A DNA stretch of 64,000 nucleotides from a virus: IMG/VR virus record IMGVR_UViG_3300036770_008442, positions 32,001 through 96,000 of that record; one strand, 5' to 3'. Shown here in pieces: positions 2,479 through 64,000 of this stretch. The stretch's first letter is position 1. Every line of letters begins with the position of its first letter. The notes beneath the pieces were generated by a model. The model saw only the letters and a program-made list of their open reading frames with translations. It was not told the DNA's origin and made no database searches. Position numbers and translations under genes: made by a program.

Positions 2479-4689
2479 TTACCCATTATTGGTTAAACTT
2501 TTTCCAACTATATCAACCTGAAAGAGAAGACTATTTTCATCTATACACACTATATCTATGACTGGCAAATACCCATAAGAATTTATGTCAGAATCAACCA
2601 GAGAGATGATGAGAGTTGAATATTCAACACCAGATGGATTATCCACAGGATATCTGCCATTAGCGTTGGTAAGGAAGTTTATATTGTAATCTCCTGGAAT
2701 TATCTCATCGCCAAAACTGAATCTCATAACCTGACCTCTTTTCCACTGAACAGGACCATCATTAATTCTAATAACCAAATCGGAAGATAAAGTTATGGGG
2801 GTTCCATTATTTACGTGTTTAATGTAATTTCCAAAACTCCTGAGAGGCACCTCATTAAAAGTTGAATTTTGGAGGTTGACAATTCCGAAGTTGTTTCCGA
2901 TATTATAGGACTGATTATCATTGTAAATAATAACCTGATTTGGAATTCCTCGATCTACCAAGATTCCAGATCCCTGCTTAATTCCATCTAAATTATATGA
3001 GATCTCGACTGATGTTTCATTATTAATGATCGCTCGAATGAGCTCATAGTTTTGATTAATCAGTCCCATCACAGCCTGTGTGTTATTAAACAGGGCTTGG
3101 TTAGAGGCATATGAATTTTCAAGAGAAGCTATTCTTCGGTCGATGTTTACAGTGGTATCAGTAGAAAGTACTAGATTTTCCAAATTAGAAACTCGTGATT
3201 CCAAAGCACTGTATGTAGAAGCATTGTTATTTAGAGTTGATGAAGCATCCTGAAGCACGTTCATGGCATCCATAAACATAGTTAAGGAAAATGGGGAATA
3301 GTCATTAATAGCTTGTTCTACTCCGGTTTGATCTATATCAACATCAAATTTGATATTCAATTTAAGTCCGTATGAGTTACCATTAAGTTTAGTAACTATA
3401 TTCGGCTTATACTTCTTAAAAGTGGGTATTTGATAAACATCAGTTCCCGCCACTTGAACATCATCTAAAAAGAGAACTCCATATAGGTTAGTGGCAGAAT
3501 CTGTGGGGATAGCTGGATCGTAAACATCATAATACACTAGAACACAGTTGAACTCAAAATCTATAGACAGGGAGGTTGAATTAAATTCCTCGATCGTACT
3601 GATTGAGGAGTCATCAACAATTTGCTTATATGATCCTGGATCAAAATCAATTCCGACTGAATCGAGTTTGGTTCTTACATATTTCTGAAAAGCAACACCC
3701 GAAGTTGCACCTGAAACAGATTTTGATAAGATGAGCGAAGTTGGATCCGTAAATAAAGCATCAGTAAAATATGTGTTAGCCGTATCTCTTGGTGTATACC
3801 AATTTCCAGCTCCTGTTGTTCCATCGGAGGTATCCTCATAAGTAACAGAGGGAGATCCCAAAACATCATCGTCGAAAATAGCCAGATTAGTCAGACCACT
3901 AGGATTTAATTCATCATATGCTCTTCCTGTTAGATATTCTCTGTTTAAAGGATCAGATGGATTATTAGTCCACTGATAATCTGGGTAATAATTGGTATCG
4001 ACTACGTTTTTGAACAAAACAGTAGGGGTGTTACCATCCTTTGTTGGTACATGAACATAAACCTCAGAATACGTATTGTTGTTGTTCTTGACAGAGTTGA
4101 CTATATCCAGATTTCCGATGTACTGAACTACCCGATTATAGATAGATCCTGATAATCCATAAGATCCTGTACCTCCAATAGGGTCGCCCTCAACAAATCT
4201 TTTTTGGGTAACCGGAAGAGAATTGACAATAGTAACAGTGTTTTGATCTAAGGTGGGGACAACCTGAGCAGATGATGCTGGTTGGAATCTAATAGCTCCA
4301 ATTTCCTTTAACCATTTAAAAAATATTCTTTCGGAAATATTCTGCTTCAATGACGAATCATAAACATCAGAACTTAAAATTGTGGTTTCTAAATTCAGAC
4401 AATAGCTTTGAAAACTCTGGGAAAAATCAATGTTAGCATTACCTGTAATAATTTTTCCCGCACTAGATGCTTTATCTAAAAAAGCACTATCGGGAGCATT
4501 CAGTTTAATTGAATTTCCTAAAGGATCTCCTGAATTAATTTCAGGCAAATTCAGCAAAGCAAATTTAGAGAATTTAAATTTATTAACCGAATTATTAAAA
4601 GTAAAAGACAGGTCTTCAGCAGCAGAAGAAAAAGCATAAAAAGTTCCTCCCTGTATTTGAAGCGGTCTTATAAAAGGTGTTTTTGCCAT
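2479..4689 (-). CDS. Putative virion structural protein (tail/baseplate associated), 736 aa
   Basis: Long ORF within the tail operon with a short coiled coil (LESRVSNLENL). No enzyme motif. Confidence 0.6.
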   Translation of the reverse strand: MAKTPFIRPLQIQGGTFYAFSSAAEDLSFTFNNSVNKFKFSKFALLNLPEINSGDPLGNSIKLNAPDSAFLDKASSAGKIITGNANIDFSQSFQSYCLNLETTILSSDVYDSSLKQNISERIFFKWLKEIGAIRFQPASSAQVVPTLDQNTVTIVNSLPVTQKRFVEGDPIGGTGSYGLSGSIYNRVVQYIGNLDIVNSVKNNNNTYSEVYVHVPTKDGNTPTVLFKNVVDTNYYPDYQWTNNPSDPLNREYLTGRAYDELNPSGLTNLAIFDDDVLGSPSVTYEDTSDGTTGAGNWYTPRDTANTYFTDALFTDPTSLILSKSVSGATSGVAFQKYVRTKLDSVGIDFDPGSYKQIVDDSSISTIEEFNSTSLSIDFEFNCVLVYYDVYDPAIPTDSATNLYGVLFLDDVQVAGTDVYQIPTFKKYKPNIVTKLNGNSYGLKLNIKFDVDIDQTGVEQAINDYSPFSLTMFMDAMNVLQDASSTLNNNASTYSALESRVSNLENLVLSTDTTVNIDRRIASLENSYASNQALFNNTQAVMGLINQNYELIRAIINNETSVEISYNLDGIKQGSGILVDRGIPNQVIIYNDNQSYNIGNNFGIVNLQNSTFNEVPLRSFGNYIKHVNNGTPITLSSDLVIRINDGPVQWKRGQVMRFSFGDEIIPGDYNINFLTNANGRYPVDNPSGVEYSTLIISLVDSDINSYGYLPVIDIVCIDENSLLFQVDIVGKSLTNNG

Positions 4690-24298: not shown

Positions 24299-26863
24299 TT
24301 AGACTTCATAATCATCTGGATTGAAATCACCCAAACTGATGTTATATTTATCCGAAGGTTTAGAATTTCCTAGATTTAGGGGGGATTCCATTATAAAATC
24401 TCCGGATGTTAAGGGAAAAACATTTCCCAAATTTTGAGGTTTCTTTTGCCTATTTTGATCCACATAAACATTACCCGGGGATTGATCGAAATTATTTTCT
24501 CTATTTCTTAATTCTCCCCGTGATTCAATCTGGGTAGATTGCTCATAAACTTTAGAAGCTTCTAATTTAGGCGAAAAATCTTCTAATCTCGAAGGAAATT
24601 CGTTTGATAATGAATTTGGTGCTTGCGTATTTTGATTTGGAGAATTATCATAAACAGTGGAATTAAAAACCGGATATGTCCTATTAGGTACCCCTAGATC
24701 ATCCCCAGGAACTTCCCGATATAGATCAGAATCTAAAGATGGATACTGTCGAATAGGAACCCCTAGATCAGCTCCGGGAACATCTGGATAAACATCAGAT
24801 TTTATAGATTCATAGTCCCGGGACGGAACCCCCAAATCAGCTCCAGGAACACCTGAATAAACATCATCAACAAGACCGGGATACTCCCTAGTAGGAACAC
24901 CTAAATCTGAACCGGGCACACCCGGGTAAACATCATCATTAAAATCTGGATAAACCCTGTCTGGAACTCCCAGATCAGTCCCAGGAACACCCGGGTAAAC
25001 ATCATCATTAAAATCTGGATAAACACGGTCTGGAACTCCCAAGTCTTGACCTGGAACATTTTCGTAAGCGTCTCCGCTCGAAGGAGGATAAACCCGATCC
25101 GGAACCCCTAAATCAAATCCAGGAACATTCACATAAACATCTTCTTTTGGTTCTGGATAAATCCGATCTGGAACACCTAGATCGGTCCCAGGAACATTTG
25201 AATACAAATCATCTTCTACCGTCGGATAAACCCTGTCAGGAACTCCTAAATCCGATCCAGGTACATTTGGATAAGCATCAGCCTTTACCATAGGATAAAC
25301 TCTTTCCGGAACTCCTAAATCTGGACCAGGAACACCCGGGTATGAATCCGAATTTCCTCCCACTGGGGGATAAACTCTTTCCGTTGGTCCGCCCTGTCCC
25401 ATTTTTTGAGGATTGGGGAGATTTCCTTTAAAAATATTGTCTATCCCAGTTTCAGCTGCTCCATTCAAAAAGTTTTCAAGATTATTAAAACCAAGTTTAC
25501 CGCTTTCATTAGTAAATCTAGCTAATTGGGTTGGATTAAATGAATATATGTTTCCCAATAAACTTTGATCCAGTCCGCTTAAAAATCGATCAGACAGAGA
25601 TCTTATCCCTTCGTTAACAAGATCAGAAACAGCATTTGAAACAACGTTAGTTAAAAGTTGTCCAGCGTTTCCCAGAAGCTGTTCGAGACTTAAAGCATCA
25701 GAAGCTCCAAGGTCCTGTAAAGAAGATCTATTTTGATCGTATCCGTCAGCTAAAATGAGGGGTTTACCGTCACCTCTAATGTTGGGATATTGGGATTTAG
25801 TCCTTACTTTCCCGACATATATTCTGAACTGATTAGTTTCAGGTTCTGCTGAGGAAGATCCCATATCAATCGTTGATTTTATCGGGGTGGTTTCGCTAAA
25901 ATCAAATTCACACTGTTGGCATTCATAGATCATAACAGGTTTGATGCCCAGCTGATCTGTTTGGTTTGAAAGAGCAGCGATGTCGTTTGAAATTCCAGAT
26001 TGACCCAAAATATTGTTCGTAAAACTAGAGAAAGAGTTGCCCCTCCCTGAATCACTGCCACCAACAGGATCAGAGGTCAAAGAGGATAGTCCGCTTCCGA
26101 TACTGCTCCCTGCATTATTGTTAGTTTGTAATAGGTTAGAAAGACTATCGATAGCGGTTAATGTAGTACTTGAATTTATCAGTCTGCTGGTCTTGAAAAA
26201 ATTCCTAATTTCTGTAACAAAAATCCACATCGTGAACTTCCTCAAATTTCTCGGGACTAGCCATCTCATATTATCATAATCAAAGGTGGCCTGATTATAC
26301 AATTCAGCTAAAGCAGAAATTCTAAGGTTTATAGATTCTAAAGTTTTAATATTTAGATATTTTTCTGCTGTTCTTTGGGTATCAAAAGCATCGAATTGAT
26401 TTGATGTTTGAAATCCAGATCTGGAAACTTGGGACAATTTATCAAGTCCATCGATTGACTGAAAAAACCAAGGCGAATTGGCATTTATTTCTTGTAAAAG
26501 TTTAGTAAATTGTAGAATAGCATTTGCTCTCTTTGTCCTATTATTCTCAGCATCAAAAGACCCTTCTCTTTGTAGCAAATAATTATAAGCAGAATAGTAC
26601 ATTAATTGCGGGTTTGAAGCAGCATATTGTGGCTGACCAAAGGGATTATTGATACTTTCAGCCATTGATGAGTTATCTATAGAGTAATTTTCTCTTTTCA
26701 ATAAAGGACTAGGAGCCCATCCATAATTTGGATCAACCGTGAGATTTCCAAAATCAAACATTATTTTAAATCCAAGATAAGTTGGATCCTCATTTTTGCC
26801 CGAATTAGAAAGCTTAAATCCTTTAAGGAATAGACTCCTTTCTCTATCTGTTGCTTGTATCAA
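24299..26863 (-). CDS. Probable baseplate/tail-tube junction protein with proline-rich repeat region, 854 aa
   Basis: N-terminal part (PWFFQSIDGL, LESINLRI, VPRNLRKFTMWIFVTEIR) is tube-fold-like by context, between hub and spike genes. TTG start. Confidence 0.5.
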   Translation of the reverse strand: MIQATDRERSLFLKGFKLSNSGKNEDPTYLGFKIMFDFGNLTVDPNYGWAPSPLLKRENYSIDNSSMAESINNPFGQPQYAASNPQLMYYSAYNYLLQREGSFDAENNRTKRANAILQFTKLLQEINANSPWFFQSIDGLDKLSQVSRSGFQTSNQFDAFDTQRTAEKYLNIKTLESINLRISALAELYNQATFDYDNMRWLVPRNLRKFTMWIFVTEIRNFFKTSRLINSSTTLTAIDSLSNLLQTNNNAGSSIGSGLSSLTSDPVGGSDSGRGNSFSSFTNNILGQSGISNDIAALSNQTDQLGIKPVMIYECQQCEFDFSETTPIKSTIDMGSSSAEPETNQFRIYVGKVRTKSQYPNIRGDGKPLILADGYDQNRSSLQDLGASDALSLEQLLGNAGQLLTNVVSNAVSDLVNEGIRSLSDRFLSGLDQSLLGNIYSFNPTQLARFTNESGKLGFNNLENFLNGAAETGIDNIFKGNLPNPQKMGQGGPTERVYPPVGGNSDSYPGVPGPDLGVPERVYPMVKADAYPNVPGSDLGVPDRVYPTVEDDLYSNVPGTDLGVPDRIYPEPKEDVYVNVPGFDLGVPDRVYPPSSGDAYENVPGQDLGVPDRVYPDFNDDVYPGVPGTDLGVPDRVYPDFNDDVYPGVPGSDLGVPTREYPGLVDDVYSGVPGADLGVPSRDYESIKSDVYPDVPGADLGVPIRQYPSLDSDLYREVPGDDLGVPNRTYPVFNSTVYDNSPNQNTQAPNSLSNEFPSRLEDFSPKLEASKVYEQSTQIESRGELRNRENNFDQSPGNVYVDQNRQKKPQNLGNVFPLTSGDFIMESPLNLGNSKPSDKYNISLGDFNPDDYEV
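24671..25381 (-). repeat. About 10 tandem 69-nt (23-aa) coding repeats, consensus DRVYPxxxDDVYxxVPGxDLGVP
   Basis: Ten DLGVP units counted in the translation; two adjacent units are nearly identical at DNA level. Confidence 0.95.
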
Positions 26864-44554: not shown

Positions 44555-46249
44555 TTAGGAAAGTCCTCCAGCAGGTACATTGACGTGCAAGCAGAAGTAC
44601 ATGGTTTCGGGGTGGAAACCAGCTTCGACGAGAGCGTAACGTGACTTAACTGCGATCTTCGGAGACATCGTACCCTCTGAGATGGTCTGAATAGATTCAG
44701 CCATCATGTAAGGCATAAACTTGAGACCTGGCTCATCATCTCCGCCCTTTCTTCCAATGAGAATTCTATTGTCGTTGAATTTCATGTTCTGGTCGACGTA
44801 AACAGTCATACCAGCGAGAGAACCAACTGGGTAAAGAGTTCCATTGTTCTGGGTCAGGGTATTAGAGAAAGGAGCAAAAGTAAACTGTGAAATGTCCTGA
44901 AGTGCACTTGCAACGTTAGCGTTAGTAACGATAAAGTTAGCAGGGCCTCTTCTTCCTCTGTTAGCAACTACGTTTGCTCCAGCAAGAATTCTAGAGAAGA
45001 GTCTTCTCTGGAGAGTAGACAAGTTCTCGTAGGTTCCTGAAGCAGGACCAGCAGTACCAGCAAGGGTTAAACCGGTGTCTGATTTTCCAACGTAAGAAGG
45101 AATGGAGTAAGAACCAGCAGTACCACCGATAACGAGGTTGAGGTTCAAGTTTTGTCCTTCTGTAGTGAAGAAATCATAGTGGTTAGACCATCCAAGGGCA
45201 AATGCTCTAGAAAGGATGTGCTTATTAATAGCCTGTGAAACTTCGTTAACAAGAGCATTTTCAATCATTGAAATAACGTCAATTCCAAATTGCTTATTCA
45301 AGTCTTGGATTTGCTCAGTGGTAACAGAAGCAGCTACCTGGAATGTATCAGCCTCCACGAATTTTGTGAAAGTCGAAAGACCCATTGACTGGTAGTAATT
45401 ACTTTCACCGTATGCTCTAAGCATTGGGTTGTAGGTCTTAGTACCATCAACGAAAGGTCCTTGCCAATCATCGGAGTTTTGGAAGCCAGCTCCAGAGAAT
45501 CCTTGGATGTGATCCTCGAGGGCCTTAACCAATTCAGCAGAAGCTGTAGTAGTACCAGCTTGTGATCCGTTAATTGAAGTACCTACTTTAGTTGCTCCAC
45601 CATCAACAACAGCAGCTACAGATTCCCCCGCTGTAATTCCATCAACCTTAAAGATTGGGAATCCGTCGATTCTGGAGAGTCCGACAAATTTGGTTGTGAT
45701 GTATGCACCAGCAGAGGTAGCATTGGTGATGTAGTAAGTTGTACCAACTGCAAAATCACCAGGATATCCAGCTGCAGGGCTCGTAAGTCTGAGCTTAATC
45801 ATAGCAGGAGCTGCTGCCAAAGCATCAGCTGCAGTAGATCCAACAGAGGTTGGGCTAAGCTTACCACCAGCATAAACGTAATCTAGGTAAGAAAGAACAC
45901 CGGTAGGTCCAGACATCGGGATAACCGGAACGATGTCAAATCCAACCGTCTTCGCAGCAACCTGAATTGCCAAGGGAAGAAGTGAAGGAAATTTATCGCC
46001 AGATCCTTGCCAAGATGTGTTGTAAAAACCAGCATTAGCGTTAGTGCTAGTTGGGAAGGTTGGAGGTACAACTGCTCCCATACCGTTTACAACATTGAGC
46101 GACTGGTATGCACCAGCAGACTCATTCAAAGAATGGTAGTGGCAGTATTTGCTCAACCATGTCTTCTTTTCAACATCAGCGATACCTGCTTTTTGCTCAA
46201 TGATAGGAGCCCAGGTATCGAAGATTTCTGCTTCATTAATCAGTTTCAT
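44555..46249 (-). CDS. gp23: Major capsid protein (T4 gp23-like)
   Basis: DIVPVIPMSGPTG, TTEQIQDL, RRGPANFIV, GLKFMPY, TMSPKIAVKSRYAL are gp23 motifs. Followed by a strong terminator. Confidence 0.95.
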   Translation of the reverse strand: MKLINEAEIFDTWAPIIEQKAGIADVEKKTWLSKYCHYHSLNESAGAYQSLNVVNGMGAVVPPTFPTSTNANAGFYNTSWQGSGDKFPSLLPLAIQVAAKTVGFDIVPVIPMSGPTGVLSYLDYVYAGGKLSPTSVGSTAADALAAAPAMIKLRLTSPAAGYPGDFAVGTTYYITNATSAGAYITTKFVGLSRIDGFPIFKVDGITAGESVAAVVDGGATKVGTSINGSQAGTTTASAELVKALEDHIQGFSGAGFQNSDDWQGPFVDGTKTYNPMLRAYGESNYYQSMGLSTFTKFVEADTFQVAASVTTEQIQDLNKQFGIDVISMIENALVNEVSQAINKHILSRAFALGWSNHYDFFTTEGQNLNLNLVIGGTAGSYSIPSYVGKSDTGLTLAGTAGPASGTYENLSTLQRRLFSRILAGANVVANRGRRGPANFIVTNANVASALQDISQFTFAPFSNTLTQNNGTLYPVGSLAGMTVYVDQNMKFNDNRILIGRKGGDDEPGLKFMPYMMAESIQTISEGTMSPKIAVKSRYALVEAGFHPETMYFCLHVNVPAGGLS

Positions 46250-60311: not shown

Positions 60312-61304
60312 TTAAAGATAACTTTTTTCCGGTATCTGAATCTTTTTTTCCCCCATATACTCATAGATATCATTCGGATCAACAGGTACAGCACCCGAGA
60401 TTCGACAAACCAAAGATCCGGAGAGATTAGAAACATCTATACAATCAGTAAGGCTAAATCCGCTCAAGAACATGAGCATAAAAACAGCACTAACTGTGTC
60501 ACCTGCTCCAGAGACGTCCACTATATTAATCGAATGACCATTTACACTAAAGTTTGAATCATTCGAAGATAAAGCCATTCCCCTTTCAGACATGGTGATC
60601 AATGCATATTGGATGTCATATTTAGAAATTAGATTCTTTGCAAGATCAAAAATCTCAGCGACTGAAAGATTCTGGTTTTGGTTGATTTTCAATCCATCCT
60701 TAAGTTCCGATAGATTGGGCTTCAAAATGGTAGTTCCCTGATATTTAGTAAAATCCTTATCCTTAGGATCGGTTAAAACTGGGATTTTTAAGGTCTTACA
60801 TCTACTAATAATTTCAGAGATCAAACCCCTAGTTAAAACTCCCTTGCCATAATCCTGAAGAATAACACCGTCTAAATTTTGACAAATGGAATCAAAGGAT
60901 TCTAGAATAGAGAAAAACACATTCTCTGGAATATCAGAGGTTGTTTCATTATCTATTCTTGTTATCTGATGACCATTTCCTATGATTCGGGTTTTTACTG
61001 TAGTTGGCCTTTGATCAGAAATTAGGATCGGGGTAATCCCAGCCTGTTCTAATAAAACATTTAGAATATTAGAATACTCATCCTCTCCTGAAACTGAAAT
61101 TAAATAGCAGGTGGAACCAAAAACAGAAATATTCTGGGCAACATTAGCAGCTCCGCCCAAGCAATAGATCTCATCCTCTTTCAGAACAACAGGAACGGGA
61201 GCTTCGGGGGAAACCCGGTTAACTTTCCCATAAACGTAATGATCTAAAATGGAATCTCCGATTACTGCGATCCTTTTATTCGCAAAAACATTCACAAAAT
61301 TCAT
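60312..61304 (-). CDS. rfaE: Heptose-7-phosphate kinase (RfaE/HldE kinase domain, PfkB family)
   Basis: VIGDSILDHY, RVSPEAPVPV, LGGAANVA, QDYGKG, DVSGAGDT. Confidence 0.92.
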   Translation of the reverse strand: MNFVNVFANKRIAVIGDSILDHYVYGKVNRVSPEAPVPVVLKEDEIYCLGGAANVAQNISVFGSTCYLISVSGEDEYSNILNVLLEQAGITPILISDQRPTTVKTRIIGNGHQITRIDNETTSDIPENVFFSILESFDSICQNLDGVILQDYGKGVLTRGLISEIISRCKTLKIPVLTDPKDKDFTKYQGTTILKPNLSELKDGLKINQNQNLSVAEIFDLAKNLISKYDIQYALITMSERGMALSSNDSNFSVNGHSINIVDVSGAGDTVSAVFMLMFLSGFSLTDCIDVSNLSGSLVCRISGAVPVDPNDIYEYMGEKKIQIPEKSYL

Positions 61305-61314
61305 TTATCAACTG

Positions 61315-62919
61315 TTAAAGAGTAAACTGTTCTGGTTCATCTTCCCCTCCCTCACCCCCTCCTTTTTCCTTAGCTTCCTTCTCCGCTTGCTCTGCTTCTT
61401 TTTTCTTATATTCCTCATTTTTCCGATATTCATCCATCGATAATCCTAGCCATCTCTTAATTAAAAATTCCTTATCAAAATAAGGTTCCTCTTCATCCCC
61501 TATTCTTTGATTCATTTCCGACATAGAGTTTACAAATTCAGATCTCTTTGTTAAATTTTGGAGATTTAAGAATTCTTCAAAGATGTTTTCCCTTACATAA
61601 TCCAGTCCTAGATTAGACTTAAAGGATCGGTCTTTAGATAATTCTGGAAAATCTAAACACATTTGGATATAAAGAGGCTTAACCAATATTTCCTGAAAAA
61701 CCGATCTAATTCTGGTTAAAAACTTTTCATAACGGATTTCATCCCTCTCTAGCTGATCTATACTAATCTGATAATTAGCCGGGGTTCCACCTCTAAAAGA
61801 AAATCTAGCATATGGAATTTTTGAATCTAGTTTGAGCTTATTGTAGAAATAAACAACATTTTCCATCACATTAAAATCTGGTCCATTGGGATCTAAAGTC
61901 TCGATAGAAGGGGACTGTCCATCTTTTTCAGGAAAAAGATAGTTCTTGTAGAATTGCACCTTAGGTCTACCATTGACTGTCAATTCTCCAGAGAAATCAT
62001 TCAGTTCTATCTCCTCCTTGTAAATAGACATTAATTGACCCAAAGTTTGCATGGCTTTCTGCTGGGATTGGCTTCCAACCGGTATAACAAATTTGAGACG
62101 ATATGAAGCATTCATAACATTCCAAATAACCCGGGTATTCTCCATAATTCTAAGAATATTGTACGATCTCACAAGTCTTTCTACATAACTAACTCTAGAG
62201 ATCGTATTTCCCTTAGCATAAGACAAATAAATCACCTGCTCATTTTGGAGCTTTCTGGTCATATTATTATCATTTGGATATTGGATCCAGATCTGTTTAA
62301 ATTCACCATTTGGCTGAGGCTCTGTTGCTGGCTGAAGGGAAGTCGGATCCAATTCTTTGAATCCGACTATCTTTTTACCATTTGTAGAATAAACAATCTC
62401 AAAAGCCAAAAATCCATCAATAAGAAACTGTCTGAAATATTGCCAAGCTAAAACTGATTGTTGAAACCCAAACATCATATACAGATTCCTATATGATTCA
62501 TCTATTCGATCTAATATTTCTTTCTTAATTTCTATATTAGCAATGCCGGGATATGAAAAGAAGTTCTTATCGTCATAATTTATAGCATCATCTGTCAAGG
62601 TATCCAGAATAAAATCAATCTCCCCGTTGAGAGAAAATTTTCTTAGAAAATCCCTTTTGCCCAGATAGTCTTTATCAAAATAAGCAATATATTTTCTAAT
62701 TTTTGTGTCCTGATATCCCAAAGTCCAATAGAAGGCGGAATTTTCAGTAAATCCGGTTCCTTGCTCTTTGAAAAAATTAGATTCAGTTTGGCCAATAGCT
62801 TGGGAATTCCGGATTACCATATCCTCGTATTTCATCCCAAACTTCCCTATGCGACTCAGGTTTTTATATAAGACGTTTAAAAAACTTCTTTCCTGAACGT
62901 TATCCAAAAATCCGGCCAT
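61315..62919 (-). CDS. gp20: Portal protein (T4 gp20-like), copy 1
   Basis: FRQFLIDG, ELDP, LRIMENTRVIW, YFYNKLKLDSKIPYAR, LERDEIRYEKFLTRIR correspond to gp20 motifs. Confidence 0.88.
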   Translation of the reverse strand: MAGFLDNVQERSFLNVLYKNLSRIGKFGMKYEDMVIRNSQAIGQTESNFFKEQGTGFTENSAFYWTLGYQDTKIRKYIAYFDKDYLGKRDFLRKFSLNGEIDFILDTLTDDAINYDDKNFFSYPGIANIEIKKEILDRIDESYRNLYMMFGFQQSVLAWQYFRQFLIDGFLAFEIVYSTNGKKIVGFKELDPTSLQPATEPQPNGEFKQIWIQYPNDNNMTRKLQNEQVIYLSYAKGNTISRVSYVERLVRSYNILRIMENTRVIWNVMNASYRLKFVIPVGSQSQQKAMQTLGQLMSIYKEEIELNDFSGELTVNGRPKVQFYKNYLFPEKDGQSPSIETLDPNGPDFNVMENVVYFYNKLKLDSKIPYARFSFRGGTPANYQISIDQLERDEIRYEKFLTRIRSVFQEILVKPLYIQMCLDFPELSKDRSFKSNLGLDYVRENIFEEFLNLQNLTKRSEFVNSMSEMNQRIGDEEEPYFDKEFLIKRWLGLSMDEYRKNEEYKKKEAEQAEKEAKEKGGGEGGEDEPEQFTL

Positions 62920-62939
62920 TTTATTTAATTAACTTTTGT

Positions 62940-64000
62940 TTATGCTGTGGGTTCTTCAGTTCCTTCCGCGGGTGGAGCGGGCTCGCTCGGGGTGGCTGCG
63001 GGAGCTTCTGGCTGCTCGCCTTCTGGACTTTGTCCTTCAGCTTCTCCAGATTTTTCGCTCTCTTTCTTTTCCTTTTTTCTTTTCTCTTTTGCTTCCATGT
63101 TTGCCTTAATATCATCCTCGGTCATTCCCAGATAATTTTCTATCAGATAAGCAAGAGAAAAGAAAGGTTTTCCATCTGCATCTGTTAATCCATATAGAGA
63201 CGAAATAGATTCTTTTTTCTTGGACATAGTTTCCATCTCCTGATTAATTCGAAATGGATTATCAGAAACAAAGGTTAATCCTAATTGGCTTTTAAACAGA
63301 TGATCCTTTTCTAGTTCTGGAAAATCTTTACACATCTGGATCCAAAGTGGCTTTATGAGGATATCCTGGAAAATAGATCTAAGCCTTGTAATAAACTTAG
63401 AGAATCTTATTTCCTCCTTATCCAAACCCTCTGCAGAATTTGAATATTTTCCAATTGATCCACCGTCCGGTCCCTGAAATCTCGAAAATGGAATTTTAGA
63501 TTCTTGAGCAAGCTTATCGAAGAAATAAGCTAAAGGACCAGGGTCATTTAAATTGGGTCCAGCGTTGCTGATTGGTTCTATTGTAGGAGTACCATTAACA
63601 CCAGAAGGCATCAGATAATTTTTATAGAACTGAATCTTAGGTCTTCCGTCTATAGTTAATTCTCCGCTTTCGTCGTTGAATCTGATATCCTCTTTATAGA
63701 TACTCATTAATTCTCCCAAAGTCTGCATAGATTTTTGAGGAGATTTGGTACCAATAGGAACGGTCATTTTCATTCTAAATGAAGCATTCATCACGGACCA
63801 AATCACCCGAGTATATTCGATAATTCGGAGAACATTGTATGGTCTAATCAGTCTTTCGGTATAGCTAATTCTAGAAACCGAATTTCCCTTTGCGTATGAA
63901 ATGTAAATAATCTGGGAATCGTATAAAAGCCTTCTTCTATTCTCATCCTTTGGGTATTGGTACCAAACATTTAAATAAGTTCCATCTTTTTGTTTTTCAA
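62940..64000 (-). CDS. gp20: Portal protein (gp20-like), copy 2; 5' part lies beyond the window
   Basis: Frame is open from the right edge (EKQKDGTYLNVWYQYP...ISYAKGNSVSRISYTERL...) and aligns colinearly with copy 1. The track's start at 63806 is an edge artefact. Confidence 0.88.
   Translation of the reverse strand, partial: EKQKDGTYLNVWYQYPKDENRRRLLYDSQIIYISYAKGNSVSRISYTERLIRPYNVLRIIEYTRVIWSVMNASFRMKMTVPIGTKSPQKSMQTLGELMSIYKEDIRFNDESGELTIDGRPKIQFYKNYLMPSGVNGTPTIEPISNAGPNLNDPGPLAYFFDKLAQESKIPFSRFQGPDGGSIGKYSNSAEGLDKEEIRFSKFITRLRSIFQDILIKPLWIQMCKDFPELEKDHLFKSQLGLTFVSDNPFRINQEMETMSKKKESISSLYGLTDADGKPFFSLAYLIENYLGMTEDDIKANMEAKEKRKKEKKESEKSGEAEGQSPEGEQPEAPAATPSEPAPPAEGTEEPTA

Follow-up and report, generated by a model that had tools for sequence, protein, structure and literature searches.

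Two old, equally preserved portal protein genes in a clade of uncultured huge phages suggest a capsid DNA ring built from two kinds of subunit

The sequence analyzed here is a window of 64,000 nucleotides that corresponds to bases 32001–96000 of a 128,254-bp viral contig. The list of open reading frames for the end of this window contained two minus-strand ORFs, the second of which was open at the window end (62940–63998, 352 aa visible). The downstream gene, designated portal paralog A (gene position 61315–62919, minus strand), is complete and encodes a protein of 534 aa according to the ORF list, profile searches and structural modeling. The other gene, portal paralog B (minus strand), occupies positions 62940–64000 of the window, which encode the C-terminal 352 aa of its product. 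Since both genes are located on the minus strand, transcription reaches B before A, and the copy that runs past the window end is the upstream one. Retrieval of the full second gene, which had been recommended in the first-pass annotation, placed it at contig positions 94940–96589 (window-equivalent 62940–64589); the gene is intact and encodes 549 aa, so the upstream truncation of the second copy that was considered there is ruled out. The two genes are separated by an A/T-rich spacer of 20 nt (62920–62939, minus strand), which extends from the stop codon of B to the start of A and reads ACAAAAGTTAATTAAATAAA.

The A and B proteins share the N-terminus MAGF and are 51% identical across residues 1–531 when the full-length B is used; a BLASTP comparison of A with the visible part of B gave 50% identity over 303 aa (E 9e-111). 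All four peptides that had been quoted earlier as colinear between the copies were found in the ORF translations. The C-termini differ, as had also been claimed. The acidic tail of A (61315–61419 with the stop codon, minus strand) ends in ...GGEDEPEQFTL, the last residues of which form the hydrophobic peptide QFTL. The longer acidic tail of B (62940–63098 with the stop codon, minus strand) is rich in Pro, Glu, Ala and Thr and ends in ...PAEGTEEPTA, without a terminal hydrophobic peptide.

Both proteins were attributed to the T4-type portal family. The Pfam profile Portal_T4 (PF07230) matched A with 201.1 bits and the window part of B with 146.3 bits (cut-off 22.9), and the match of A covered profile positions 9–433 of 433; together with the ORF list, these matches bear out the description of the locus as adjacent gp20-like ORFs 20 nt apart. 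The portal profile phrog_213 was matched by A with an E value of 2.7e-55 and by full-length B with an E value of 6.3e-56. Modeling using AlphaFold 2 led to monomers with helices and strands in identical order, although the mean pLDDT was only moderate (62.9 for A, 61.1 for B) and the clip and stem were modeled poorly in both. In these models, the wing, stem, clip, tunnel loop and crown follow the canonical portal order in A and B, with the reservation on clip and stem just given. A Foldseek search with the models returned T4 gp20 chains as the top matches (E 4.5e-17 for A and 3.4e-15 for B; probability 1.00, TM 0.38–0.53). By sequence and predicted fold, A and B are complete T4-type portals.

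The pair is located in a head and neck morphogenesis module of the tailed-phage type. Its upstream neighbors include genes for a gp55-like late sigma factor and a gp4-like head-completion nuclease (phrog_218; Pfam TnsA-like N domain), and genes for the large terminase, sheath, tube, prohead protease and major capsid protein were found on the same strand of the contig. A 202-aa ORF between the gp4-like gene and portal B, as well as several other neighbors, gave no Pfam or PHROG match at E <= 0.01. A terminator scan of the locus did not reveal a terminator-like site between A and B, and no obvious Shine-Dalgarno sequence was seen in the 20-nt spacer. Over the whole locus, the numbers of terminator sites (5 vs. 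3.1 expected) and sigma-70 promoter sites (16 vs. 16.8 expected) were uninformative. The T4 late-promoter motif TATAAATA occurs 2 times in the 19-kb locus vs. 2.4 expected, and a count so close to expectation provides no evidence for a late promoter.

To evaluate the spread of the pair, related viral loci were collected in two samplings. The order B then A was found in 76 of 80 loci, 71 of which contained both ORFs complete, and in 66 of 74 loci in the second sampling. All exceptions in both sets were cut by contig ends with the upstream DNA missing, and none of the loci in the two sets that had room for both genes was found to carry a single copy. The contigs of the first 80 loci carry about 71 different dataset prefixes, as counted from their names, and the A/B junction was bridged with zero differences by a contig originating from another sample within that study. 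These results rule out both a strain-specific duplication and an assembly artefact, two of the outcomes that the first-pass annotation had regarded as damaging to its proposal. The rule of one portal gene per genome is broken here: the contig has two full-length paralogs, as does each related locus that is long enough to hold both. A tblastn search with A as a query (E <= 1e-5) found no record with two full-length matches among 1,969 deposited phage records. A second match was obtained only in LR756501 and LR756503, which are records of equal length, and was identified in LR756501, where it was checked, as a 101-aa C-terminal fragment ORF.

The phylogeny that had been proposed earlier as a check was built with 98 rows and revealed that A and B form separate clades, both of which persist across relatives. 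The A clade (45 rows) had an SH-aLRT support of 99, the B clade (48 rows) 100 and the joint A+B clade 99. The sister of A+B was the LR756500 group, which has one portal gene. Near-complete contigs of the clade are 250–349 kb long, and the pair was also found on a 373-kb contig. The pair arose by one old tandem duplication in the ancestor of an uncultured huge-phage group and is clade-wide. The tail-tube gene is also doubled, with a distribution matching that of the portal pair, and LR756500 has one copy of it. In a relative with a 99%-complete genome, the large terminase and the major capsid protein are each encoded once, and the only further capsid-like ORF is a distant one of 298 aa. The idea that the clade is devoid of a gp13-type 12-mer adaptor, with a hexameric neck protein binding the portal directly, was considered and rejected because a phrog_211 (gp13-type) match was found in the clade genome G001 (E 3e-8); LR756500 matched the same profile (E 1.7e-15), and no match was detected in G000, G002 and G003. 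A gp14-type domain was found in all five genomes (G000–G003 and LR756500).

Estimation of evolutionary rates indicated that both copies are under strong and equal purifying selection. For A, the median dN/dS over 8 pairs was 0.015; for B, 9 pairs gave a median of 0.013. Among 525 shared columns, 278 in A and 276 in B were at least 90% conserved, and the conserved-column values were similar between A and B in each domain, including the clip, tunnel loop and wing. The pairwise divergence of A across 41 genomes closely followed that of B (r 0.975, slope 1.007). The nucleotide identity between A and B was 57–60% in 33 of 33 genomes, and no gene conversion was seen in the core of the two genes in these genomes. 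The tails have been converted in some genomes, the last 30 nt sharing 20–28 identical nt in 7 of the 33. Since the duplication, all descendant lineages have thus kept both paralogs under purifying selection, as an obligate hetero-oligomeric ring would demand.

The positions of the differences between the paralogs were then compared with the portal domains. The domain limits in A and B were mapped by alignment to T4 gp20, the T4 limits being those stated in the consulted passages of PMC4493910. The clip domain of A (61867–62109, minus strand) comprises residues 271–351, derived from residues 279–358 of T4 gp20, and that of B (63543–63785, minus strand) comprises residues 269–349. The tunnel loops correspond to residues 367–392 in A (61744–61821, minus strand; Arg376 codon at 61792–61794) and residues 365–391 in B (63417–63497, minus strand; Asp375 codon at 63465–63467). 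A total of 28 fixed A/B differences were found, 10 of them in the clip, and most are conservative replacements (S/T, I/V, D/E, Y/F, R/K). They are concentrated in the clip, stem and tunnel loop, where 22 of 84 columns conserved in both paralogs differ vs. 6 of 114 elsewhere (Fisher p 4.7e-5). According to the consulted passages of PMC4493910, the T4 clip builds an inter-subunit beta-sheet and the tunnel loops contact the loops of neighboring subunits; at the level of whole regions, the fixed differences are thus enriched where T4 has its inter-subunit contacts. The paralog-specific clip residues include positions 273, 277, 279, 321 and 329 of A and 271, 275, 277, 319 and 327 of B.

The clearest single difference is a charge reversal in the tunnel loop, where R or K is present in 74 of 74 distinct A sequences (Arg376) and D or E in 77 of 77 distinct B sequences (Asp375). 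The T4 equivalent of Arg376 in the gp20 alignment is D383, and this site is D or N in the outgroups and T4, so the acidic Asp375 of B represents the ancestral state. At the clip tip, all 74 A sequences contain Q (Gln284) and all 77 B sequences K or R, and a channel-loop site is V or I in A and D in 77 of 77 B sequences. The ancestral residues are distributed in a complementary manner: among the clip sites, 7 have retained the ancestral residue in A and a single one in B, whereas in the stem helix alpha7 and tunnel loop 5 sites have done so in B and one in A (p 0.026 for the contrast with the clip). The suggestion that the whole channel loops have opposite net charges was found to be only partly true, since the complete tunnel loops of A and B in the window are both about neutral; their charge difference is confined to the N-terminal half (+2 in A vs. 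0 in B) and to single diagnostic sites. The terminal motif [FVI][TKE][LI] was found in A in 30 of 33 non-redundant genomes and in B in 12 of 33, none of which belongs to the window's subclade.

The presence of two old and equally preserved portal copies suggests that two kinds of subunit make up the DNA ring of the capsid. In our opinion, the best reading is a dodecamer in which A and B are mixed and probably alternate; its chance of being correct falls just short of even. We infer both the presence of the two proteins in one ring and their order there. A and B would be transcribed together, being 20 nt apart, and both proteins would most likely be made in every infection and co-assemble into a single 12-subunit ring at the portal vertex, probably with six A subunits alternating with six B subunits. 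Both subunit types would have kept the capsid-binding wing and the common N-terminus, and each copy would have fixed its own residues at the contacts with subunits, DNA, packaging motor and neck (clip, stem, tunnel loop). A one-gene ring could have become an obligate two-gene ring by this route, via complementary interface changes after duplication. In its most complete form the proposal is only slightly less probable: an obligate A6B6 portal with true sixfold and not twelvefold symmetry and with tunnel loops of opposite charge on neighboring subunits would be followed by a tail tube of two paralogs, so that the whole conduit would alternate, and it would be the first hetero-oligomeric portal of any tailed virus.

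Alternatively, A and B could form two separate homododecamers, one of them the canonical portal at the tail vertex and the other a ring at a second vertex or stacked in the head, perhaps to load, hold or release internal proteins or an end of the DNA. Universal retention and equal constraint are also expected from two individually essential rings, and the presence of the terminal hydrophobic peptide in A and its absence in B in the window's subclade hint at separate partners within the capsid. However, the wing, clip tip, channel loops and tunnel loop are equally conserved in the two proteins, so that both copies look fit for vertex, DNA, motor and neck. In addition, the sole large terminase and sole major capsid protein of the 99%-complete relative argue against a second ring, and another subclade keeps the two tails identical (7 of 33 genomes), from which it follows that the tail difference is not inherent in the pair. 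The capsids of T4 and P22 are nucleated on a single portal during assembly, and we know of no second-vertex ring formed by a portal homolog. We consider two separate rings rather unlikely. Both ideas go back to the first-pass annotation: its heteromeric ring is favored by the equal constraint, by the clustering of fixed differences in ring and channel parts and by the tunnel-loop charge reversal, and its second vertex for protein cargo gained no specific support.

It is also conceivable, with a low probability, that either paralog alone forms a working homododecamer and that the choice depends on the host, the condition or host defence, for instance as an escape from portal-sensing immunity. 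Some bacterial STAND-type defence proteins recognize portal proteins, and the completeness of A and B as T4-type portals by sequence and predicted fold would suit such a role. Copies that are redundant or used only under some conditions should sometimes vanish or evolve faster, but both genes were present wherever the locus was long enough, A and B have evolved at equal rates (slope 1.007) and dN/dS is low in both. The fixed differences map to buried parts of the ring and channel rather than mainly to exposed surfaces, and the spacing of 20 nt without a terminator-like site leaves little room for the separate regulation of the genes. Finally, a decaying duplicate or an assembly artefact is hardly credible, as 71 of 80 loci contain two intact ORFs and the remainder are cut by contig ends, dN/dS is about 0.01 in both copies, about 71 dataset prefixes are represented among the first 80 loci and the junction is bridged in a second sample.

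No other machine part of tailed phages and herpesviruses is as conserved as the portal, and the rule in tailed phages is one gene and a homododecameric portal. To our knowledge, every solved portal ring consists of twelve identical subunits. The combination of a 12-fold portal with a 5-fold capsid vertex and a 6-fold tail is a long-standing assembly puzzle. A clade that, throughout its sampled members, maintains two diverged portal subunits with equal and strong selection on both represents a natural experiment. If the ring is mixed, it would demonstrate that the symmetry of the portal can be reduced and would reveal at which contacts (with subunit, DNA, motor and neck) two subunit types are tolerated or exploited; a one-gene ring would then have turned cleanly into one that needs two genes. 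In the case of two rings, the second would be a new virion component. No report of paralogous or heteromeric portals was found in full-text literature searches, and such portals are not mentioned where a comparative review of jumbo phages (PMC7824862) deals with the portal.

A comparison with known systems indicated that T4 gp20 (PF07230; PDB 3JA7, 6UZC, 9MKB, 9LU6/9LU7) shares its profile and secondary-structure order with both A and B and is the best structural match of both. The clade also contains a T4-like late module, with a gp4-like nuclease, gp55-like late sigma factor, large terminase, sheath and tube. However, T4 has one portal gene, whereas two genes with products of about 51% identity are present here, and the identity of A and B to gp20 is only about 16–21%. 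The closest named relatives are LR756500 (462 kb), LR756504, LR756501 and the Lak phages, with one full portal gene per genome; the identity of their portals to both A and B is 45–47% for the LR756500 group and 34–37% for the rest of this set. A precedent from the same group is provided by T4 gp23 and gp24, a duplicated head gene whose copies occupy different fixed positions in one particle. T4 gp24 is a paralog of gp23, and its gene carries the annotation capsid vertex protein. In contrast to the mixed ring proposed here, gp24 forms its own pentamers and does not mix with gp23 in one oligomer, and the two belong to a protein family different from that of portals.

A precedent for a DNA conduit ring made of two diverged copies of one fold is the tail-tube protein pb6 of phage T5, which is relevant to the doubled tail-tube gene of the clade. 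Two fused tube domains are present in pb6, and its trimer has pseudo-sixfold symmetry. In pb6 the copies are fused in one polypeptide that forms a tube and not a portal, whereas the clade has two genes. The fungal V-ATPase proteolipid ring, the proteasome rings and CCT became hetero-oligomeric after gene duplication, and their co-assembly has been shown experimentally. The proteins of these rings are unrelated to portals, and for A and B co-assembly is proposed from the pattern in the sequences. Taken together, the equal constraint on A and B, their fixed differences in the regions of ring contacts and their complementary ancestral residues fit the route taken by such duplicated ring subunits.

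The ORF listing and a BLAST comparison of the downstream gene (A) with the visible part of the upstream gene (B) confirmed the two adjacent portal ORFs of the first-pass annotation, both of the T4 family and on the minus strand. Portal A (window 61315-62919, minus strand) is complete and encodes 534 aa, while the minus-strand ORF of portal B (62940-63998) is open at the window end. The genes are 20 nt apart, their products are 50% identical over 303 comparable aa (E 9e-111), and both match Pfam Portal_T4 far above the cut-off. Truncation of the second gene had been considered, and it was found to be complete on the 128,254-bp viral source contig (CheckV completeness: 46%), of which the window covers bases 32001-96000; portal B spans contig 94940-96589 (window-equivalent 62940-64589) and encodes 549 aa. 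Full-length B has the same N-terminus as A (MAGF), and the two align over residues 1-531 with 51% identity. The spacer is A/T-rich and a terminator scan found no terminator-like site between B and A, so the two genes are likely co-transcribed, B being upstream. An A/T-rich leader lies in front of each start codon (window 62920-62939 and positions 3079-3104 of the analysed stretch L002), and no Shine-Dalgarno-like sequence was found in either. The closest cultured portal relatives belong to phages of Bacteroidota, namely Prevotella, Tenacibaculum and Chryseobacterium phages.

A crude ORF call placed 113 of the 117 contig ORFs on the minus strand, and a PHROG scan revealed a T4-like late region. 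In order of transcription, it contains genes for the large terminase, a 1,085-aa sheath and two tandem tail-tube paralogs; nucleotide-metabolism genes; genes for a gp55-like late sigma factor and a gp4-like head-completion nuclease (also TnsA-like in Pfam); a 202-aa ORF without assignment; portal B and then portal A; genes for a PfkB-family kinase, an ATP-dependent DNA ligase and a clamp loader; and, further on, genes for the prohead protease, one major capsid protein and the baseplate. The PfkB-family sugar kinase gene (window 60312-61304) adjoins the portal pair on its downstream side. Elsewhere, the contig encodes a 634-aa protein with a cytidylyltransferase domain (L083:3813-5717) and carries two glycosyltransferase-like genes (L086:5252-7485). 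Together with the kinase, these may belong to a nucleotide-sugar pathway, perhaps one for DNA or virion modification. Only four of the 117 ORFs begin with Met-Ala-Gly, namely the two portals and the two tail-tube proteins (MAGL); this coincidence may be due to chance. The portal of LR756500, a single-portal huge phage, also begins with MAGF.

An IMG/VR scan yielded 204 relatives of A, and the best 80 of these 204 loci were searched with A and B by tblastn. B followed by A was found in 76 of the 80, with both ORFs complete in 71 and one copy cut by the contig end in 5; in the other four, the contig starts inside A or at most 40 nt from its start. Across these loci, identity to A is 66-88% among A-type copies and identity to B is 65-88% among B-type copies; the two copies within each genome are about 50% identical throughout. 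A second scan with a divergent A ortholog added 74 loci (approximately 56 new contigs, counted from names), of which 66 carry B then A; in the remaining 8, A is preceded by no more than 370 nt. Among the contigs with the pair, the largest measure 250-373 kb, and three have completeness ratings of 92-100%. In addition, the junction between B and A is spanned, with zero differences, by a contig of the same study that derives from a different sample. These loci and the bridging contig rule out an assembly artefact or a strain-specific duplication, both of which the first-pass annotation had left open.

Both copies are under strong and similar constraint. As synonymous sites are saturated in most pairs, dN/dS was taken from those with dS of 0.05-1.2: the 8 A pairs have a median of 0.015 (range 0.003-0.031) and the 9 B pairs one of 0.013 (0.005-0.032). 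In a set thinned at 97% identity (32 A and 35 B sequences), conservation of 90% or more was reached by 278 of the 525 shared columns in A and by 276 in B, and the two copies are similarly conserved in every domain; the domain limits come from T4 gp20 (PMC4493910) and were transferred by alignment, with anchors that agree with those of HMMER. Pairwise divergences of A and B across 41 genomes are correlated (r 0.975, slope 1.007). No sign of gene conversion in the core was found, the A-B nucleotide identity being 57-60% in all 33 non-redundant genomes. Decay of one copy and redundancy of a recent duplicate are excluded by the data. The wings and N-termini are nearly identical, and A and B therefore look like complete, working portal subunits that would face the same capsid.

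A maximum likelihood tree of 98 distinct sequences (IQ-TREE quick search, LG+C20+F+G4) revealed that both clades persist across relatives. The 45 A sequences all group together (SH-aLRT 99), as do the 48 B sequences (100); the two clades are joined (99), with the LR756500 group as their sister (98). The stems are similar in length (0.69 and 0.85), and the same three subclades recur in both subtrees. The portal of the LR756500 group is 45-47% identical to A and to B alike. It is the only portal gene in the whole 462-kb LR756500 record, and a single one was also found within the flanks of five related contigs. LR756504 and LR756501, two further huge phages, have one full portal each, and two full copies were found in none of the 1,969 deposited phage records matched by tblastn with A. 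The separate A and B clades and the single portal of the LR756500 group and deposited records point to one tandem duplication in the stem of the clade, after its split from the LR756500 lineage. Note that the 735-kb LR756501 record contains an isolated ORF for a 101-aa C-terminal fragment (LR756501.1 15166-15351), which lies far from the full gene and matches only the last 58 portal-profile positions.

The two tail-tube genes, which lie in tandem outside the window (L085:14513-15661; contig 109442-110590), encode proteins of 192 and 184 aa that are 52% identical. Each of the three clade genomes with completeness ratings of 92-100% has two such genes, and LR756500 and its 50%-complete relative have one each; thus, the tube and portal pairs have the same distribution among the genomes compared. 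When the 345 ORFs of G002, a 99%-complete 270-kb relative, were compared all against all, the portals and tubes were the only full-length pairs at 50-57% identity, and one large terminase and one major capsid protein were found. G002 also has a 298-aa ORF (178333-179229) whose product matches the major capsid protein at 24% identity across 271 aa and might represent a vertex-type paralog comparable to T4 gp24. A 151-aa ORF (L083:948-1403) shares a 46-aa stretch, 52% identical, with the major capsid protein (window 44555-46249), and G002 has the same kind of small ORF; this stretch may be a targeting or processing segment for proteins entering the prohead. Between the tube and portal genes lies a far more diverged tandem pair of small proteins (L085:5977-7196, contig 100906-102125; G002 25741-26755, 29% identical), for which no family match was found in Pfam or PHROG.

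Among columns conserved in both copies, 170 are identical and 28 are fixed but different. Ten of these differences lie in the clip, seven in the two stem helices and five in the tunnel loop, i.e., 22 of the 84 both-conserved columns in these elements vs. 6 of 114 elsewhere (Fisher p 4.7e-5); many of the 28 substitutions are conservative. Diagnostic sites were scored in 74 distinct A and 77 distinct B sequences. The tunnel-loop site A376/B375 (T4 D383) is R/K in 74/74 A and D/E in 77/77 B, with D or N in the outgroups and T4. At the clip tip (A284/B282), A has Q (74/74) and B K/R (77/77; outgroups and T4: K, K, L, L, M). The channel loop has D (74/74) vs. N (75/77) at A348/B346 (E, D, N, N, N) and V/I (74/74) vs. 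D (77/77) at A351/B349 (D, D, E, E, N). B has P in 77/77 sequences both in stem helix alpha5 (A252/B250; A S 74/74, LR756500 group S) and at the start of stem helix alpha7 (A354/B352; A N/S 74/74; outgroups and T4 A, T, V, M, D). In the inner clip loop, A has E-K-D-G-Q and B has S-G-V-N-G. With the LR756500 group as the reference for polarity, the ancestral state is retained by A at 14 of the 28 sites, by B at 7 and by neither copy at the remaining 7; the clip is ancestral in A (7 vs. 1), and helix alpha7 with the tunnel loop in B (5 vs. 1; p 0.026).

AlphaFold2 monomer models built from a 69-sequence alignment were of moderate confidence (mean pLDDT: 62.9 for A, 61.1 for B), good in the wing and long bent helix and poor in the clip and stem. 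Both show the same succession of elements, and in Foldseek searches of the PDB the ten best matches of each were T4 gp20 chains (9LU7, 9MKB, 6UZC, 9LU6), with 3JA7 at rank 13 and other phages' portals next. According to PMC4493910, PMC12929587 and PMC12929629, the T4 clip forms the sole main-chain inter-subunit sheet and binds both the packaging motor and gp13, the neck protein that inserts an arm between clip helices of adjacent subunits; the tunnel loops contact those of neighbouring subunits and hold the last-packaged DNA. With domain limits transferred from gp20, most of the fixed differences fall in the elements through which portal subunits would contact one another as well as DNA, the motor and the neck proteins.

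The simplest reading, which we hold tentatively, is one ring with two subunit types, probably alternating. Complementary changes at the subunit interfaces after the duplication would have fixed such a ring, and neighbouring subunits may touch at the tunnel-loop site that is basic in A and acidic in B. Full-text literature searches and the portal sections of a jumbo-phage comparative review yielded no description of paralogous or heteromeric portals. Conditional use of A and B as alternative portals seems improbable, since it fits poorly with the universal retention, the equal rates of the two copies and the 20-nt spacer. Retention and constraint agree with two separate essential rings as well as with a mixed ring; however, every DNA-, motor- and neck-facing element is equally conserved in both copies, and there is a single capsid protein and a single terminase, which makes separate rings rather unlikely.

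Two separate rings would also fit the differentiated tails of the window's subclade. Both proteins end in an acidic low-complexity tail, and the terminal hydrophobic peptide [FVI][TKE][LI] is present in 30 of 33 A and 12 of 33 B copies from non-redundant genomes. The different acidic tails first noticed in the window hold throughout its subclade, where the B tail is longer, Pro/Glu/Thr/Ala-rich and devoid of the hydrophobic ending. In seven genomes of another subclade, A and B share their four C-terminal residues as well as 20-28 of the last 30 nt, which looks like local gene conversion. The tails of T4 gp20 and of the outgroups are likewise acidic stretches closed by a hydrophobic or aromatic residue.
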